Notes under the pieces: generated by a model
Database searches by the model: none
What the model was told of the DNA's origin: nothing
Seen by the model: the letters and a program-made list of their open reading frames with translations, nothing else
Assembly (NCBI GenBank): GCA_025456345.1
Contig: JALOKU010000001.1
Location: forward strand, 248,529 to 312,528
DNA: 64,000 nucleotides
From: Vicinamibacterales bacterium
Lineage (GTDB): Bacteria > Acidobacteriota > Vicinamibacteria > Vicinamibacterales > JAKQTR01
Reading direction: 5' to 3'
Part shown: positions 14,386-45,272 of the stretch, piece after piece
How positions within the stretch are numbered: the stretch's first letter is position 1
How the letters are laid out: every line of letters begins with the position of its first letter
Program-made: the position numbers and the translations under genes

Positions 14386-15549
14386 ATGCGGATGATGCGA
14401 ATCCTTCCGGTCTCGTTCGCGCTCGCGCTCGCCGTTGTCCTGACCGCGCCGGCGCCACGTGCCGCCGCCCGCCAGGCGCCCCTGGCCGCCCCCGCCCCCG
14501 CCGCGCAATCCGCCAGGGCCGACGACGTTCGGGCCCGCGCCGAGCAGGGGGATCCCGCCGCGCAACTCAGCCTCGGTCTCATGTATGCCATCGGCCAGGG
14601 TGTGCCGCGCGACTACGCGCAGGCCGCGGCCTGGTACCGCAAGGCCGCCGAACAGGGCAAGGCGCTCGCCCAGCTCAACCTGGGCTGGTGTTACGCCGCC
14701 GGGCTCGGTGTGCCGCAGGATCTCGCGCAGGCCGCGGCCTGGTACCGCAAGGCGGCGGAGCAGGGCGACCCCACGGCGCAGGTCAAGCTGGGCGGGCTTC
14801 TCGCCGCAGGCGACGGCGTGCCGCAAGACGAGGCGGAAGCTGCGGTGTGGTATCGAAAGGCCGCGGATGAGGGCGATGCCGCCGCCCAGCTCAGGCTCGG
14901 CCTGGCCTACGCGAACGGCCGCGGCGTCGAGCGCGACGCGGCCCAGGCCGCCGGCCTGTTCCGCCAGGCGGCCGAGCAGGGGAAGGCGCAGGCGCAGTTC
15001 ATGCTCGGGGTGATGCTCGAGCAGGGCCGGGGCGTGGCGCAGAATCTCGCCGACGCGGCGCGCTGGTATCGCCGCGCCGCCGAACAGGAGGATGTGACGG
15101 CGCAGTTGAACCTGGGCGCCTGCTACGAGCTCGGCAAGGGCGTCCCGCAGGACCCGGCCCAGGCCGTGGCGTGGTACCGCCGGGCCGCCGACCAGGGCGA
15201 GGCGAGGGCCCAGGCGAACCTCGGCCGCGCGTACGCCGCCGGGCGTGGTGTCGCGCAGGACTACGCCCAGGCCGCGGCCTGGTATCGGCGTGCGGCCGAC
15301 CAGGGCCACGCGGCCTCGCAATTCGACCTGGGTGAGCTCTACGCGCGCGCGATGGGCGTGCAGCGCAGCGACGTGGAAGCGTGCCGCTGGTTCCTGATCG
15401 CCGAGTCGCGCGCGGCGTCGCCGGCGGACAGGGCGGCCTATGCCGCCGCCCGGGAACGGCTCGCCCGCCGGATGACCGCGGCGCAACACAACGAGGCGCA
15501 GCGCCTCGCCCGCGAGTGGATCGCCGCCTTCGGTCGCCGCGCGAAATAG
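14386..15549 (+). CDS. Secreted Sel1-repeat (SLR) protein
   Basis: ATG at 14386 (MRMMRILPVSFALALAVVLTAPAP..., signal peptide). Eight consecutive 36-aa Sel1 repeats of the form xAQxxLGxxYxxGxGVxxDxAQAAxWYRKAAEQG. Confidence 0.85.
   Translation: MRMMRILPVSFALALAVVLTAPAPRAAARQAPLAAPAPAAQSARADDVRARAEQGDPAAQLSLGLMYAIGQGVPRDYAQAAAWYRKAAEQGKALAQLNLGWCYAAGLGVPQDLAQAAAWYRKAAEQGDPTAQVKLGGLLAAGDGVPQDEAEAAVWYRKAADEGDAAAQLRLGLAYANGRGVERDAAQAAGLFRQAAEQGKAQAQFMLGVMLEQGRGVAQNLADAARWYRRAAEQEDVTAQLNLGACYELGKGVPQDPAQAVAWYRRAADQGEARAQANLGRAYAAGRGVAQDYAQAAAWYRRAADQGHAASQFDLGELYARAMGVQRSDVEACRWFLIAESRAASPADRAAYAAARERLARRMTAAQHNEAQRLAREWIAAFGRRAK
14551..15414 (+). repeat. Eight tandem 108-bp (36-codon) Sel1 repeat units inside the CDS
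   Basis: Read directly from the translation: DPAAQLSLGLMYAIGQGVPRDYAQAAAWYRKAAEQG / KALAQLNLGWCYAAGLGVPQDLAQAAAWYRKAAEQG / ... / HAASQFDLGELYARAMGVQRSDVEACRWFLIAESRA. Confidence 0.9.
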
Positions 15550-16968: not shown

Positions 16969-16990
16969 GCGGTGAAGTGTACGACAGAAG

Positions 16991-17022
16991 CCCCCAACCC
17001 CTATCCCCCAGCCCCCAGCCCC
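16991..17022 (-). repeat. Five C-tracts at 7-nt spacing (G-quadruplex-capable on the minus strand)
   Basis: Plus strand: CCCCC AA CCCC TAT CCCCC AG CCCCC AG CCCC. Minus strand: GGGG CT GGGGG CT GGGGG ATA GGGG TT GGGGG. It lies in the 86-bp divergent spacer between the sialidase gene (start 16968) and the PIG-L gene (start 17055). Confidence 0.85.
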
Positions 17023-25338: not shown

Positions 25339-25356
25339 GGCGGGGACGCTACCGAT

Positions 25357-25445
25357 CAGTATTCAGTAGCCAGTAGCCAGTAGAAAGGCTCCTGAGCTGC
25401 GAGCTGTTCCGACCTACTGGCTACTGACTACTTGCTACTGGCTAC
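25357..25445. repeat. Inverted pair of heptad (7-nt) tandem arrays, CAGTAGC type
   Basis: Arm A (25357-25383): CAGTATT CAGTAGC CAGTAGC CAGTAG. Arm B (25414-25445): CTACTGG CTACTGA CTACTTG CTACTGG CTAC. The 13-bp core pairs perfectly (25371-25383 with 25414-25426) inside an imperfect stem of about 27 bp. The loop is 30 nt. Confidence 0.9.
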
Positions 25446-26965: not shown

Positions 26966-27892
26966 ATGATGAAGATCGATAGACGGGCGTTTCTGGAGAT
27001 GACGGCGGCCGCGTCCACGCTGGCCGCGATCCGCGGCGCGACGCTGTCGGCTGCGCCGCAGGCCGGCGCTGGCGGGGGCCTGAAAAAGGCGGTCTACGTG
27101 TCGATGCTCCCGAAGGAGCTGGGCTACCTGGACAAGTTCAAGCTGGCCCTCGACGTGGGGTTCCAGGGCATCGAGATCGGGACGATTTCGGCTCCGGCCG
27201 TCGCCGACGAGATCAAGGAAGCGTCAACCAAGACCGGCCTGAAGATCCACGGCGTCATGAACGCGGATCACTGGCGCTACCCGTTGTCGAGCGCCGACCC
27301 GGAGGTGGTCAACAAGAGCGTCGCGGGCATGGAAACCTCGCTGCGCAACGCGAAACTCTGGGGCGCCGACGTGGTCCTGCTCGTGCCGGGCGTCGTCAAC
27401 CCCGAGACCGGCTACAAGGACGCCTGGACTCGTTCCCAGAAGGTGATCAAGGAGCGCATCCTGCCGCTGGCCCAGGAACTGAAGGTCGTCGTCGGCATGG
27501 AGGAGGTCTGGAACAAGTTCCTCCTGAGCCCGCTCGAGATGGCGCGCTACTGCGACGAGTTCAATTCGCCCTGGGTGAAGGCGTATTTCGACGTCGGCAA
27601 CATGCTCTTCTACGGCTACCCGCAGGACTGGGTCCGCACGCTCGGCCCGCGCATCGCCCGGGTGCATGTCAAAGACTTCAAGCTCGATCGCAAGGAGAGC
27701 AAGTACGCCTGGACGAACCTCGGCGAAGGCGACGTGGACTGGCCGGAGGTGAGGAAGGCCCTCGCCGAGGTCAAGTACGAAGGGTGGGTGACGACCGAGA
27801 TCAGCGGCGGCGACGCCGCCTACCTGAAGGACGTCGTCGCGCGCCTCGACAAAATCTTCGCGGGCCAGAAGCCGTTCACGCCGCCGGCGTAG
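26966..27892 (+). CDS. Xylose-isomerase-like TIM-barrel protein (sugar phosphate isomerase/epimerase family) with a Tat signal
   Basis: GGGAGGA RBS. The protein starts MMKIDRRAFLEMTAAASTLAAIRG (Tat motif). Segments GFQGIEIG, VVLLVPG, MEEVWNKF and VHVKDF are typical AP-endonuclease-2/xylose-isomerase-like barrel segments. Confidence 0.85.
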   Translation: MMKIDRRAFLEMTAAASTLAAIRGATLSAAPQAGAGGGLKKAVYVSMLPKELGYLDKFKLALDVGFQGIEIGTISAPAVADEIKEASTKTGLKIHGVMNADHWRYPLSSADPEVVNKSVAGMETSLRNAKLWGADVVLLVPGVVNPETGYKDAWTRSQKVIKERILPLAQELKVVVGMEEVWNKFLLSPLEMARYCDEFNSPWVKAYFDVGNMLFYGYPQDWVRTLGPRIARVHVKDFKLDRKESKYAWTNLGEGDVDWPEVRKALAEVKYEGWVTTEISGGDAAYLKDVVARLDKIFAGQKPFTPPA

Positions 27893-28014
27893 GGGCCAGG
27901 GACTAGGGGCTAGGCGCTAGGGGCTAGTCAGCAACGGTGTGACGCTGCACCCACGCGGCGGCAGCCGCGTCAGACTAGCGCCCAGCGCCCAGTCCCTAGC
28001 GCCTCCGTACCCTA
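27890..28014. repeat. Inverted pair of heptad tandem arrays, TAGGGGC type, filling the whole convergent spacer
   Basis: Arm A (27890-27931): TAGGGGC CAGGGAC TAGGGGC TAGGCGC TAGGGGC TAGTCAG. Arm B (27972-28014): ...GACTAGC GCCCAGC GCCCAGT CCCTAGC GCC...CTA. The stem is about 33 bp and imperfect (about 27 pairs). A nested hairpin TGACGC...GCGTCA (27940-27972) sits in the loop. The first TAG is the stop codon of the plus-strand gene and the last CTA is the stop codon of the minus-strand gene. Confidence 0.9.
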
Positions 28015-29133
28015 GAGCGCCGCGAGCACTTCCTTCATCAGCCACTTCGTGCCCTCGATGCCGTCCATCGGCCCGTTCTCCCACTCGAGGGCAATCGTCC
28101 CCTTGAAGCGGTGCGCGTTCAGGATGCGCACGCTGCGCTGCACGTCGTTCCAGTCCTTCTCGGGCGTCTTCCAGCGATCCCAGTACTTCGCGTGCACGTG
28201 CGTGAACGTGTAGGGCATCACCGCCTCGAGGCCGTGGAAGAGGTGGTACTCGTGCTCCCAGTTGCAGAAGTCCGGCGTGCACTCGCAGTAGGGGTGGTTC
28301 ACCTCGTCCATGATGATCCGGATGTTCATGGGGTTGGCGCAGAGGCCCCAGTGGTTCTCGATGGTGATCTTCACGCCCACCTTCTCGCCGTACTCGGCGA
28401 GCTCCCGGAACGAGTCGATGCACTTCTTCAGGTAGACGACGATCCGCTCGTTCTTCGGGTAGCCGGTGGAGTGGTCCTCGGCCTCGGGCATGATGCGCCC
28501 GCTAGAGGTGCCGGTGTTCGCGCGCATCGTCTTGGCGCCGAGTACCGCGGCCGTGTCCATCCACAGCTTCGCGACGCGGATGCCTTCCTTCCGCTTGGTG
28601 TCGTCGGGATCGGCCAGAAACTGTGGTGCGTTGTTTGAGAGGTGCTGGGTCACGAACTTCTCGTTCGCGACGATGGCCGCCAGCTTCTCGACCCACTTCT
28701 TCGACGCCGGTGCGCTCGGATCCCATCGGCGCATCGTGAACGGCTTGCCGTTGCGCTCGATCGTCGTCTCCGTGTACTGGGCGGCGTCGGCCGGATCGCC
28801 GAACACGTCCGACCACAGGTCGAGGTGATAGACGCCGGGGAAGAAGTCCCTCGTCCACCTCGGCAGATCGTGCATCGTGATCTCGCCGTACTTCTTCCGC
28901 AAGGCCATCGTCTCTTCGTTGGGCGTGCCGCGGCCGTACGTCTTGAACAGGTGGCGCTGCGGCCAGCACGTCATGGCGAGGCGCGACAGCTTCTCCGGTT
29001 CGGTCAACTGGCGCGCGACAGACGCCTGCGCGGACAGCGAGTCCGACAGCAGCGTGCCGGCGGCGGCGACGCCGAGGCCAGCCTTCAGCAGGAAGTCGCG
29101 GCGGTCGGCGGTGGATGGGTGACGCGTGTCCAT
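28012..29133 (-). CDS. Xylose-isomerase-like TIM-barrel family protein with a Tat signal
   Basis: I prefer ATG at 29133 (GGGAGGA RBS) over the GTG at 29148. The protein starts MDTRHPSTADRRDFLLKAGLGVAAAG (Tat motif). ITIENHWG, HVHAKYW and TIALEWEN are barrel-type metal-site segments. Confidence 0.8.
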   Translation of the reverse strand: MDTRHPSTADRRDFLLKAGLGVAAAGTLLSDSLSAQASVARQLTEPEKLSRLAMTCWPQRHLFKTYGRGTPNEETMALRKKYGEITMHDLPRWTRDFFPGVYHLDLWSDVFGDPADAAQYTETTIERNGKPFTMRRWDPSAPASKKWVEKLAAIVANEKFVTQHLSNNAPQFLADPDDTKRKEGIRVAKLWMDTAAVLGAKTMRANTGTSSGRIMPEAEDHSTGYPKNERIVVYLKKCIDSFRELAEYGEKVGVKITIENHWGLCANPMNIRIIMDEVNHPYCECTPDFCNWEHEYHLFHGLEAVMPYTFTHVHAKYWDRWKTPEKDWNDVQRSVRILNAHRFKGTIALEWENGPMDGIEGTKWLMKEVLAAL

Positions 29134-29342
29134 GATTCCTCCCGGCACAAAACAGGTGCCGCGGGCATGCTACACCAAGGGCGCCGCGGCGTGCAGGGGC
29201 AAAGGGCACGGCGAGGGGCGAGCGACGGGTGACCTGATGTGACGCGGATGTGGCGTTGTGTGAAGAAATGGTGGCGCACGATTTACGCGCGGACTCCTGT
29301 GCTCTACTAGGAACGCCTGCGCCTGAGAATTGCGGAGTGTTC

Positions 29343-44476: not shown

Positions 44477-44845
44477 ATGTTGCATCAGGCAGCCGTTCTT
44501 GTATACGATGATTATCGTATGAGCAAGCAGGCGATTTCCGTCACGTTGTCGCCGGACAACCTGGTCTGGCTGCGGGGGCGTGCACTGGCTGACGGCAGGG
44601 TCAGCCTCAGTGAGTTCCTCGACAGGCTCGTCACGCGGGCGCGGACCGGCGGGGCGCCGGCGCGTCCGGCGAGGTCGATGAGGGGCGCCCTTGCGGTGAA
44701 CGCCGACGAGGACGTCGTTGCGACGCCGTCGGTCGAACCCGACGTGTGGGCAGCCTGGGAGGCGAAGTGGGAGGGGCTGCTCGAGGGCCTCGACCCTTCA
44801 TCGCCGACGCCCAGGCGGGGAGGCGCACGTGGCCAGGGTGCCTGA
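44477..44845 (+). CDS. vapB: Ribbon-helix-helix (CopG/VapB-like) antitoxin
   Basis: ATG at 44477 has a GGAGG RBS 7 nt upstream. The alternative ATG at 44519 gives MSKQAISVTLSPDNLVWLRGRA..., a typical RHH N-terminal strand plus helix. The stop overlaps the start region of the PIN gene. Confidence 0.6.
   Translation: MLHQAAVLVYDDYRMSKQAISVTLSPDNLVWLRGRALADGRVSLSEFLDRLVTRARTGGAPARPARSMRGALAVNADEDVVATPSVEPDVWAAWEAKWEGLLEGLDPSSPTPRRGGARGQGA
44503..44520. promoter_or_regulatory. 7-bp perfect inverted repeat ATACGAT-gatt-ATCGTAT at the 5' end of the antitoxin gene
   Basis: 44503-44509 and 44514-44520. It overlaps the ATG at 44519. It could be an autoregulatory operator if the gene starts at 44519, but it is intragenic if the gene starts at 44477. 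Confidence 0.3.
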
Positions 44846-45239
44846 CGCCGCGGTCTGCGACACCAACGCGCTGCTTTACTACGGCTTCGGCAGCCGGCGG
44901 CTGGGCAAGGTCGCTGCGGCGCTCTTCGACGCCTGCGACGCGCAGGACACGATCATCTACGTGCCGGCCGCCGTCATCCTGGAGTTCGGCCTCGTGCTTG
45001 GCGGCCGGCGTTCTCCGGTCCGGGTCCGCCTGCGCGGCTTCTTTGAGGACCTCTTCGCGAACCCGGCATTCCAGCCGTTCGATCTCACGCCGGAACAGGT
45101 CTATCTGGCGGACGAGGAGCGGCCCAATAACGACCCGTTCGATGGGTTGATCTGCGCGGCGGCGCGGCGCCTCGGCCTGCCGCTCATCACCTGCGACACT
45201 GACATCGCCGACTGGGGACGCGTCCGCGTCGTCTGGTAG
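44838..45239 (+). CDS. vapC: PIN-domain toxin (VapC-like ribonuclease)
   Basis: GTG at 44838 (or 44829) overlaps the antitoxin stop at 44843-44845. VCDTNALLYY carries the first PIN acidic residue. EFGLVL, NDPFDGLICAAA and ITCDTD match the remaining acidic positions. Confidence 0.75.
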   Translation: MPDAAVCDTNALLYYGFGSRRLGKVAAALFDACDAQDTIIYVPAAVILEFGLVLGGRRSPVRVRLRGFFEDLFANPAFQPFDLTPEQVYLADEERPNNDPFDGLICAAARRLGLPLITCDTDIADWGRVRVVW

Positions 45240-45251
45240 GCGACCCGGCCC

Positions 45252-45272
45252 CCGGCGTCCGGCGTCCGGCGT
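45252..45272. repeat. Three perfect tandem heptads CCGGCGT
   Basis: CCGGCGT CCGGCGT CCGGCGT, starting 13 nt after the vapC stop. A 6-bp hairpin follows: TACGGC tcctat GCCGTA (45283-45300). Confidence 0.85.

Follow-up and report, generated by a model that had tools for sequence, protein, structure and literature searches.

Two convergent genes of a Vicinamibacterales bacterium (Acidobacteriota) are separated by an imperfect palindrome of 7-nt period, which fills the spacer between them. The window analysed here is the whole 64,000-nucleotide stretch at positions 248,529 to 312,528 of contig JALOKU010000001.1 (assembly GCA_025456345.1; G+C 68.9%), and the element lies at window positions 27890-28014. 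Both flanking open reading frames (ORFs), gene A at 26966..27892 on the plus strand and gene B at 28012..29148 on the minus strand, encode xylose-isomerase-like TIM barrels (PF01261). A first-pass annotation had taken the outermost TAG and CTA of the spacer for the real stop codons of these genes, and the ORF ends match: the TAG at 27890..27892 ends gene A and also begins the first heptad, and the CTA at 28012..28014 is the minus-strand TAG stop of gene B. The spacer is probably one copy of a dispersed, non-coding family of imperfect palindromes, about 100-140 bp long, found in the Vicinamibacterales and similar in kind to miniature transposable elements with inverted repeats (MITEs) and REPINs.

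The heptads themselves read exactly as the first-pass annotation had them. On the left are six, at 27890-27931 (coordinates are those of the plus strand throughout): TAGGGGC CAGGGAC TAGGGGC TAGGCGC TAGGGGC TAGTCAG. The first five form the G-rich arm (27890..27924); the sixth is a junction unit (27925..27931), largely conserved among copies, that pairs with GACTAG opposite. Three parts follow: a variable segment, CAACGGTGTGACGCTGCACCC (27932..27952), which includes a small hairpin and whose counterparts in other copies differ in sequence and are about 20-50 nt long; the core hairpin ACGCGGC-GGCA-GCCGCGT (27953..27970), whose 7-bp stem and GNNA loop are the signature of the family; and CAGAC (27971..27975), the conserved 3′ flank of that hairpin. 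On the right, the four heptads TAGCGCC CAGCGCC CAGTCCC TAGCGCC (27976..28003) make up a C-rich arm, G-rich on the minus strand, that complements the G-rich arm. A short aperiodic remainder of eight bases, TCCGTACC (28004..28011), then separates this arm from the stop codon of gene B. The arms are delimited by tandem-repeat and inverted-repeat searches together with the family alignment; the junction unit and CAGAC, by the alignment; the variable segment, by predicted folding and alignment; and the core hairpin, by these and a covariance model. Tandem Repeats Finder reports period 7 on both sides (5.4 copies at 27890-27927 and 3.9 copies at 27977-28003), in each case more than the three head-to-tail 7-nt units that define a heptameric simple-sequence repeat.

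The arms can pair over 33 nt, with 82% complementarity and about 27 pairs, as first proposed; the element thus has the terminal inverted repeats expected of a MITE, and arm-arm pairing is possible in all aligned family copies. Predicted RNA folds are very stable on the plus strand (−80.5 kcal/mol, z −4.9) and on the minus strand (−86.9 kcal/mol, z −5.3), and on both strands none of 200 shuffles folds as stably. By this modelling, the transcript of either convergent gene probably carries a long 3′-end hairpin of about −80 kcal/mol. At the centre, where a single nested GC hairpin had been proposed, hairpin structure is indeed predicted, but it is better drawn as two small hairpins, at 27936-27940/27947-27951 and 27953-27959/27964-27970.

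Neither chance nor faulty assembly accounts for this spacer. The tetranucleotide CTAG is depleted about ten-fold in the window (19 occurrences against about 183 expected from base composition), yet 7 of the 19 lie inside the 125-bp element, which therefore is not a chance arrangement. Identical copies are present in one NCBI metagenome-assembled genome (MAG; contig JAOQIB010000110, GCA_025490975.1) and in four independent JGI metagenome assemblies, which excludes an assembly artefact. No match to Rfam reaches the gathering score anywhere in the window. Two compositional traits of the clade may be recorded here: CTAG is about ten-fold under-represented in all related genomes, as in the window, and TAG is an unusually frequent stop codon for a genome of 69% G+C, ending 37% of the genes called in the window and related loci.

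The evidence for a family comes from a scan of a metagenome collection with a degenerate pattern of the core. Most matches occurred by chance, inside genes, but at least about 24 of the matches listed are full-length copies, 79-99% identical, that repeat one plan: arm; TAGTCAG; variable segment; hairpin ACGCGGC-GNNA-GCCGCGT; CAGAC; arm. At least about 17 of these full-length copies have no TIM genes beside them. A generalised copy would comprise a G-rich arm of 3-9 heptads (TAGGGGC, TAGGCGC or TGGGCGC type), TAGTCAG and the variable segment, and, as its second half, CACCC-ACGCGGC-GNNA-GCCGCGT-CAGAC followed by the complementary C-rich arm.

The same body stands beside at least 11 other unrelated gene contexts (at least 12 in all), the multi-context distribution that characterises MITEs. 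(Retrieved loci are cited below by number.) Upstream genes encode an aldehyde:ferredoxin oxidoreductase (AOR; copies L193 and L205); a FAD-binding oxidoreductase, read as NadB-like (L109); the asparaginyl-tRNA synthetase AsnS (L139); a sortilin/BNR-like protein (L143, L157, L131 and L195); a sodium:solute symporter (L204); and a hypothetical protein (L101, L177 and L203). Four more copies have distinct flanks (L187, L133, L094 and L170), and an additional one (L211, 75-174) was met by chance in a divergent spacer, in a locus fetched for another reason. The recurrence of arms and non-repetitive core in so many places speaks against the original view that the element reflects selection on its architecture rather than copies of one mobile sequence. 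A single-locus, immobile structure, suggested by the absence of the core elsewhere in 1.44 Mb, was likewise overturned by the metagenome scan.

Even within one genome there can be more than one copy. The MAG JAKQTR (GCA_029562975.1) has two diverged copies on separate contigs, one between the TIM genes (L011, 10942-11034) and one after asnS (L212, 11299-11398). In both, the two junction CTAG sites now read CCGG and nearly all other TAGs are lost, and the copies persist. This change could be concerted, or it could reflect lineage-specific loss of CTAG. Concerted evolution of the pair was not upheld: the two copies are 69% identical to one another, not clearly above their identity to copies elsewhere.

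The orthologous spacers tell how the element behaves at a single site. The plus-strand TIM-barrel protein retrieved 80 related loci, all from MAG records, the closest with 96% amino acid identity; nearly all are Acidobacteriota, mostly Vicinamibacterales or Vicinamibacteria. A planctomycete origin, which the gene content had seemed to suggest, was rejected on the strength of these relatives. Wherever the convergent TIM-TIM order is kept, every relative examined carries 7-nt arrays in the spacer, with differing units. The expectation that the 7-nt architecture is kept while the unit sequence changes therefore holds at this locus, and no convergent TIM-TIM spacer examined lacked the periodicity. 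L006, L007, L011 and L057 hold the same element as the window. Other units include TCGGGAT/CCGAGCC (L008), TGGGGGT/CCCCAGC (L010), ATGGGGC/ACGTCCC (L014) and GAGCCCC (L057). A remnant of the variable segment, AACCGCTGCC, is common to L008, L010 and L057, so the L008 and L010 spacers are read as diverged descendants of one ancestral element. The covariance model, built from 16 copies, also matches the spacer of L057, a relative with only 65% amino acid identity, which bears on the age of the element at this locus. In L009 and L025 the palindrome is degraded, and partial arrays accompany canonical hairpin-and-T-run terminators.

Between the same genes, the body of the element can point either way. 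The 97-bp body at 27904..28000 is reverse-complemented in the closest relatives: L006 (blastn identity 96.9%, element positions 15-111), L007 (86.7%) and L011 (88.6%). It is also reversed in metagenome contigs L185, L105, L174, L145 and L142, whereas L192 and L127 share the orientation of the window. The simplest cause of the flip, whose breakpoints lie within the outermost heptads, would be recombination between the inverted arms of the element itself.

Identity of the element across species is 97-99% in two pairs, 81-87% in most closer pairs, and 65-74% in comparison with the more distant L011. The 99% match between the window and L192 contrasts with gene B (window 28012-29148; L192 170-1307), which is only 89.7% identical at the nucleotide level. 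Moreover, the identity of gene B to L192 falls from 0.95 beside the element to 0.86 about 1 kb away, a gradient that suggests a recombination tract centred on the spacer. Purifying selection was considered as a reason for the cross-species identity, without a firm conclusion: third codon positions are saturated in this comparison (about 0.75-0.82), and the flanking gradient points to recombination. Covariation is similarly uninformative about structure. The core stem is invariant, in part through the core-based search, and the purine and pyrimidine positions of the arms vary without clear compensation.

Copies lie flush with genes. In each of six independent contexts, the stop codon of a long ORF with high third-position G+C coincides exactly with the TAG that opens the G-rich arm; the upstream gene there is TIM gene A or encodes the hypothetical protein, the NadB-like oxidoreductase, AsnS, the sortilin-like protein or AOR. 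In L204, a TAA stands immediately before the first unit; in L143, L157 and L131, a convergent gene has its stop codon at the opposite end of the element. The AsnS C-terminus (...LYP*) is the same with or without the element, so the native stop position has been kept. The left junction reads GTAG in four of nine contexts. The right flank of copies begins T(G/A), perhaps a decaying heptad.

The junction between asnS and a miaB-like gene reveals how readily such sites change. It was compared in L206-L212 and L139, whose AsnS proteins are 87-95% identical to the L139 query, and it takes seven forms among these genomes. The spacer is empty in L206 (from the same MAG as L006), where 16 nt with a Shine-Dalgarno sequence remain; L207 has a hairpin and (CCCGAGT)5; L208, L209 and L210 have three different coreless palindromes of the G type (e.g., L208 11306-11391); L211 has a TAGTCAG/CTACTGG palindrome; and L139 and L212 have the core-bearing element. 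In the palindromic cases the G-rich arm begins on the stop codon. In the coreless L208-L210 spacers the C-rich arm extends to the miaB-like start codon, and in several no Shine-Dalgarno sequence is left. The right arms of these coreless palindromes are unlike that of the core-bearing copy at the same junction; the two therefore are not one element with and without its core. The empty L206 spacer shares no recognisable remnant with the filled sites, although it does contain GGGGGCT, the unit of L208 and L210.

The palindrome of L211 is of the type seen in a second convergent spacer of the window, at 25355-25445, where CAGTAGC (TAGCCAG in TAG-first register) is paired with CTACTGG. This second element (referred to as 25357) is present in L007, L008 and L185. 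A core common to its orthologues and the L211 asnS element was not found, in a comparison made without a scan of the metagenome collection.

The arms themselves behave as simple-sequence repeats. Across 81 related loci (1.38 Mb), period 7 dominates the intergenic tandem repeats, with 68 arrays against 17 and 16 for the next periods, and period-7 arrays are strongly biased to intergenic positions (68, versus 14 in coding sequence). Many unit sequences occur, often as inverted pairs and often starting a few bases from a stop codon. Orthologous arms differ in unit number, and near-identical copies can differ by exactly one unit (L177 versus L203, 140 and 147 nt; L143 versus L157, 132 and 139 nt), the whole-unit variation that is the signature of slippage. 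Units can also change along an array: at L207 983-1035, eight heptads form a one-armed array that lies directly upstream of the start of a glyoxalase gene, and the unit passes in steps from TCGGGAT through TCGGGGC and TGGGGGC to TAGGCGC. In L211, the orthologous spacer has a core-bearing family copy instead.

Other tandem repeats in the window and related loci deserve brief mention. A one-armed C-rich array at window 16989-17022 (AGCCCCC, 4.9 copies; GGGGGCT on the minus strand) occupies a divergent spacer just upstream of a gene starting at about 17056; the orthologous spacer in L007 (82-107) has CTAGCGC units and an (AGAAGCA)4 array. At 45252-45272 a perfect (CCGGCGT)3 begins 12 nt past the stop of the gene at 44718-45239, with no inverted partner. 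L033 80-437, at the end of its locus, is a higher-order repeat in which three heptad arrays (GTTGCCA, GCTTCCC and GGAAGCT) recur about 2.5 times over some 360 bp. Finally, two arrays of 108-nt period at window 14599-15306 (73-74% matches) look like coding repeats of 36 residues, unrelated to the heptads.

Together, these comparisons establish, at the level of sequence, that the body has spread by copying to numerous unrelated gene boundaries; that the arms gain, lose and replace units as simple-sequence repeats do; that the body has been flipped in place; and that copies lie flush with genes, the terminal TAG often serving as the stop codon. A dispersed palindromic family would accommodate all four as follows. 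The element would be non-autonomous, and its spread would depend either on a trans-acting transposase that might favour insertion beside TAG, or on gene conversion guided by the arms. Flush junctions would follow from a trans-acting transposase with such a preference. The body would be flipped by recombination between the inverted arms, and the TAG-rich arms would render insertion at a gene end harmless. Once in place, the hairpin would act as a bidirectional 3′-end structure (a terminator, a read-through barrier or an RNA stabiliser) that works without a U-tract. A role as terminator or 3′ stabiliser is suggested by the L009 and L025 spacers, since those that have lost the palindrome carry canonical terminators.

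Several observations weigh against this interpretation. Regarding function, the hairpin is followed by no T-run on either strand, and no terminator-like site is called at 27890-28014; a canonical intrinsic terminator, for which the hairpin is present and the T/U run missing, was therefore rejected. In the window, convergent spacers are mostly short and without structure. Regarding mobility, no transposase or autonomous partner was found, and 2.26 Mb scanned yielded no widely spaced arm pairs. No consistent target-site duplication was seen at copy junctions. Viral contigs were scanned and gave no copies, so carriage by phage was rejected. The number of copies per genome seems low, and is probably modest, since the covariance model found no further copies in 1.53 Mb apart from the L057 spacer; only one or two copies found with the model had not been fetched through the core, in about 200 kb of family-positive genomes. 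The conservation of the core hairpin is in part an effect of ascertainment, the core having served as the search pattern. Regarding the sites, the asnS junction can be empty (L206), and the 25357 palindrome is absent from L006, the 96%-identity relative, where a plain GC hairpin remains. Coreless heptad palindromes with other units fill the same orthologous sites, and growth of arrays in situ clearly also occurs.

Could the palindromes simply grow in place, without any transposition? Slippage would expand a heptamer that adjoins or includes the stop codon, hairpin-templated repair would build the complementary arm, and the core would spread only by ectopic gene conversion between similar arms. 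Heptamers are reported to be the commonest long simple-sequence repeats of bacteria, a prevalence attributed to slippage (Mrazek 2007, as cited in PMC4679880 and PMC4692102). Much at the asnS junction fits: one site with many different contents among close genomes, and a GGGGGCT seed already present in the empty spacer. The one-unit polymorphisms and the gradual unit change in L207 fit equally well, as does the failure to find target-site duplications or a transposase. Palindromic arms would even let a donor pair either way, which would explain the flips as well. Three observations count on the other side. A non-repetitive core of 35-60 nt occurs in at least 12 unrelated contexts, and conversion would require compatible arms beforehand at each; the coreless asnS palindromes have right arms other than those of the core-bearing copy; and the exact coincidence with TAG stops in six contexts is not predicted by slippage alone. 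Growth in place, with conversion guided by the arms, is a serious rival, though a somewhat unlikely one.

A bolder version of the dispersed-family interpretation invokes dedicated machinery that targets TAG, or the stop codon itself, and so places this family and perhaps the other heptad palindromes of the clade. These would form a new class of stop-codon-targeting mobile element. The idea is speculative and unlikely to be right, although its consequences would be considerable: an element that brings its own stops and a reversible, orientation-free hairpin would rewrite 3′ untranslated regions (UTRs) and operon junctions at a high rate. A candidate for such machinery is a single-strand transposase of the Y1 type, akin to the REP-associated tyrosine transposases (RAYTs), that would insert the element 3′ of TAG and recognise ACGCGGC-GNNA-GCCGCGT.

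A separate rival makes the element a REP or REPIN (repetitive extragenic palindrome, or inverted doublet of these) mobilised by a RAYT, a Y1 transposase of the IS200/IS605 type, with the core hairpin as the binding hairpin and TAG as the target or cleavage site; insertions would then lie 3′ of TAG stops. Transposition of the IS200/IS605 type inserts 3′ of a short fixed target, with no duplication. The junctions described here, with no consistent duplication seen and the element 3′ of TAG, fit that rule, and GTAG at the left junction in four of nine contexts is consistent with it. Copies also have in common a GC-rich 7-bp hairpin with flanking motifs. The overall shape, an inverted doublet with a spacer forming a long hairpin, is that of REPINs as outlined by PMC3116915, and Acidobacteria are reported to have RAYT-like genes flanked by long terminal inverted repeats (PMC3733652). 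The details fit less well: each element has one asymmetric hairpin instead of a REPIN's pair of inverted REPs; the foot of the hairpin bears no consistent GTAG or CGTC tag; and no RAYT gene was noticed in the sequence examined, although the loci were not scanned for domains. The RAYT model is improbable as it stands.

The selection on architecture proposed in the first-pass annotation can be framed as a purpose-built stop module, in which each spacer would be independently selected for TAGs in all frames on both strands together with a hairpin, to halt translation and transcription alike. Here the outer units are real stops, as they are in other contexts; the plus-arm TAGs fall in frames 0, 2, 0, 1 and 2, and so close all three, as had been computed; and the orthologous spacer keeps its architecture through changes of unit. 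The minus arm, as was also noted at first, covers two frames only. A broader test used 34 heptad arrays within 15 nt of a stop codon. TAG is the commoner stop beside them (21 of 34, versus 348 of 938; orthologous loci were not collapsed), but stop-containing units are not enriched: all three sense frames are closed in only 6 of the 34, the same number as in antisense and below a shuffled-unit expectation of 21%, and 24 contain no stop at all. Selection for TAG in every frame finds no support here. Relatives use the TAG-free units TCGGGAT, ATGGGGC and GAGCCCC; both JAKQTR copies have shed nearly all TAGs; the L211 copy occupies a divergent promoter spacer, where no stop is needed; and the element is itself a copy of a dispersed family. 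As a general rule, the stop module is largely refuted, and it is an improbable account.

The closest known description is that of Rehm et al. 2015 (PMC4692102), who reported G-rich heptamers of Xanthomonas (GGGAATC) and Nostoc (GGGGA(C/T)T, the STRR1 unit) whose function is not established. The resemblance is extensive: tandem 7-nt units with G tracts and a strong intergenic bias; a G-rich strand that is the coding strand just past the stop, with arrays that can overlap it; convergent inverted pairs, common and capable of folding into stem-loops; and variation in unit number and sequence among relatives. It is nevertheless very improbable that the element is a heptamer repeat of this sort acting through a coding-strand G-quadruplex just past the stop: Xanthomonas has 70-75 convergent inverted pairs with arrays that vary in length and sequence among close species (PMC4692102), and stop-adjacent arrays here are more often G-rich on the sense strand (18 versus 7), but the canonical motif (four tracts of at least three Gs, loops of 1-7 nt) is absent from both strands of the window copy and, of 25 copies, only 7 have it on the plus strand and 4 on the minus strand, a fully complementary arm in cis offers a competing hairpin, and G tracts are missing altogether from sister elements of the CAGTAGC/TAGTCAG type. 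The quadruplex was thus rejected as a conserved feature. The Vicinamibacterales repeats also differ from the Xanthomonas and Nostoc heptamers in phylum and units. What is new in comparison with known heptamer repeats is the phylum; the shared non-repetitive core, TAGTCAG ... ACGCGGC-GNNA-GCCGCGT-CAGAC, which proves copying; and documented inversion in place.

Cyanobacterial STRRs, which belong to heterocystous cyanobacteria, have CCCCAGT, TTGGTCA or CAACAGT as units; here an acidobacterium carries TAGGGGC, TAGGCGC or TGGGCGC instead. Heptamer repeats of TAACTGA are found in Beggiatoaceae, cyanobacteria and Bacteroidetes, with 169 direct sets versus one inverted set in BOGUAY (PMC4679880), and Geobacter metallireducens has the heptads GGGACCG and MTYCTGA (PMC2700814). 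Like the arrays described here, these are short tandem heptamers, in two to six or more copies, at many intergenic sites and often beside start or stop codons. Unlike them, they are mostly direct, lie mostly upstream of start codons, and have no shared core.

The dispersed palindromes of bacteria provide a second set of precedents. Well-known examples are Correia/NEMIS, ERIC and RUP among MITEs, and the BOX elements, in which the number of boxB modules varies. As these families are generally summarised, the present one resembles them in being 100-150 bp long, non-coding and intergenic; in having inverted ends that fold into a long hairpin; in occurring in many contexts; in presence/absence polymorphism among relatives; and, as in BOX, in modular variation of length. 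It differs from MITEs in that its terminal inverted repeats are heptad arrays and its ends coincide with stop codons, and in that no target-site duplication was detected and no cognate insertion sequence is known. Similarity to described repeat families was sought and none was found, nor did any described mobile element come to light of which this one is a fragment. With REPs and REPINs (PMC3733652; and, in outline, Bertels and Rainey 2011, PMC3116915) it has in common a small GC-rich hairpin within a larger inverted doublet, a location mostly downstream of genes, probable transcription as an RNA hairpin, and dispersal without obvious duplication. The single asymmetric hairpin and the heptad arms set it apart from the two inverted REPs of a REPIN. 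A REP, moreover, is defined as a palindrome of 20-40 bp that bears the tetranucleotide GTAG or CGTC at one end (Di Nocera 2013, PMC3733652), whereas the core CACCC-ACGCGGC-GNNA-GCCGCGT-CAGAC has no GTAG at its foot, and CGTC only within its 3′ stem. Intrinsic terminators, including bidirectional ones, likewise place a stable GC-rich hairpin between convergent genes, as the canonical ones of L009 and L025 do; the element differs from them in lacking a T/U tract on either strand and in having a far longer, repeat-built stem.

This family thus joins two classes that are usually separate: heptameric simple-sequence repeats, and small dispersed palindromes of the MITE or REP kind. Because a dispersed element here has heptad arrays for its inverted ends, it is shaped by copying and slippage alike. 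For the most part it may be tolerated selfish DNA. In this soil lineage, abundant and uncultured, such elements overwrite not only 3′ UTRs but also tight operon junctions. Between asnS and miaB, a palindrome that extends to the start codon stands in place of a 16-nt spacer and its Shine-Dalgarno sequence. For strain typing the family provides a marker; for gene calling and assembly of Vicinamibacterales MAGs it is a warning. Two points are most worth following. The exact fusion of TAG and stop codon is a sharp, testable hint as to how the elements are placed; and the turnover of gene junctions, which far outpaces point mutation, should have consequences for termination, for the stability of mRNA and for the initiation of downstream translation.

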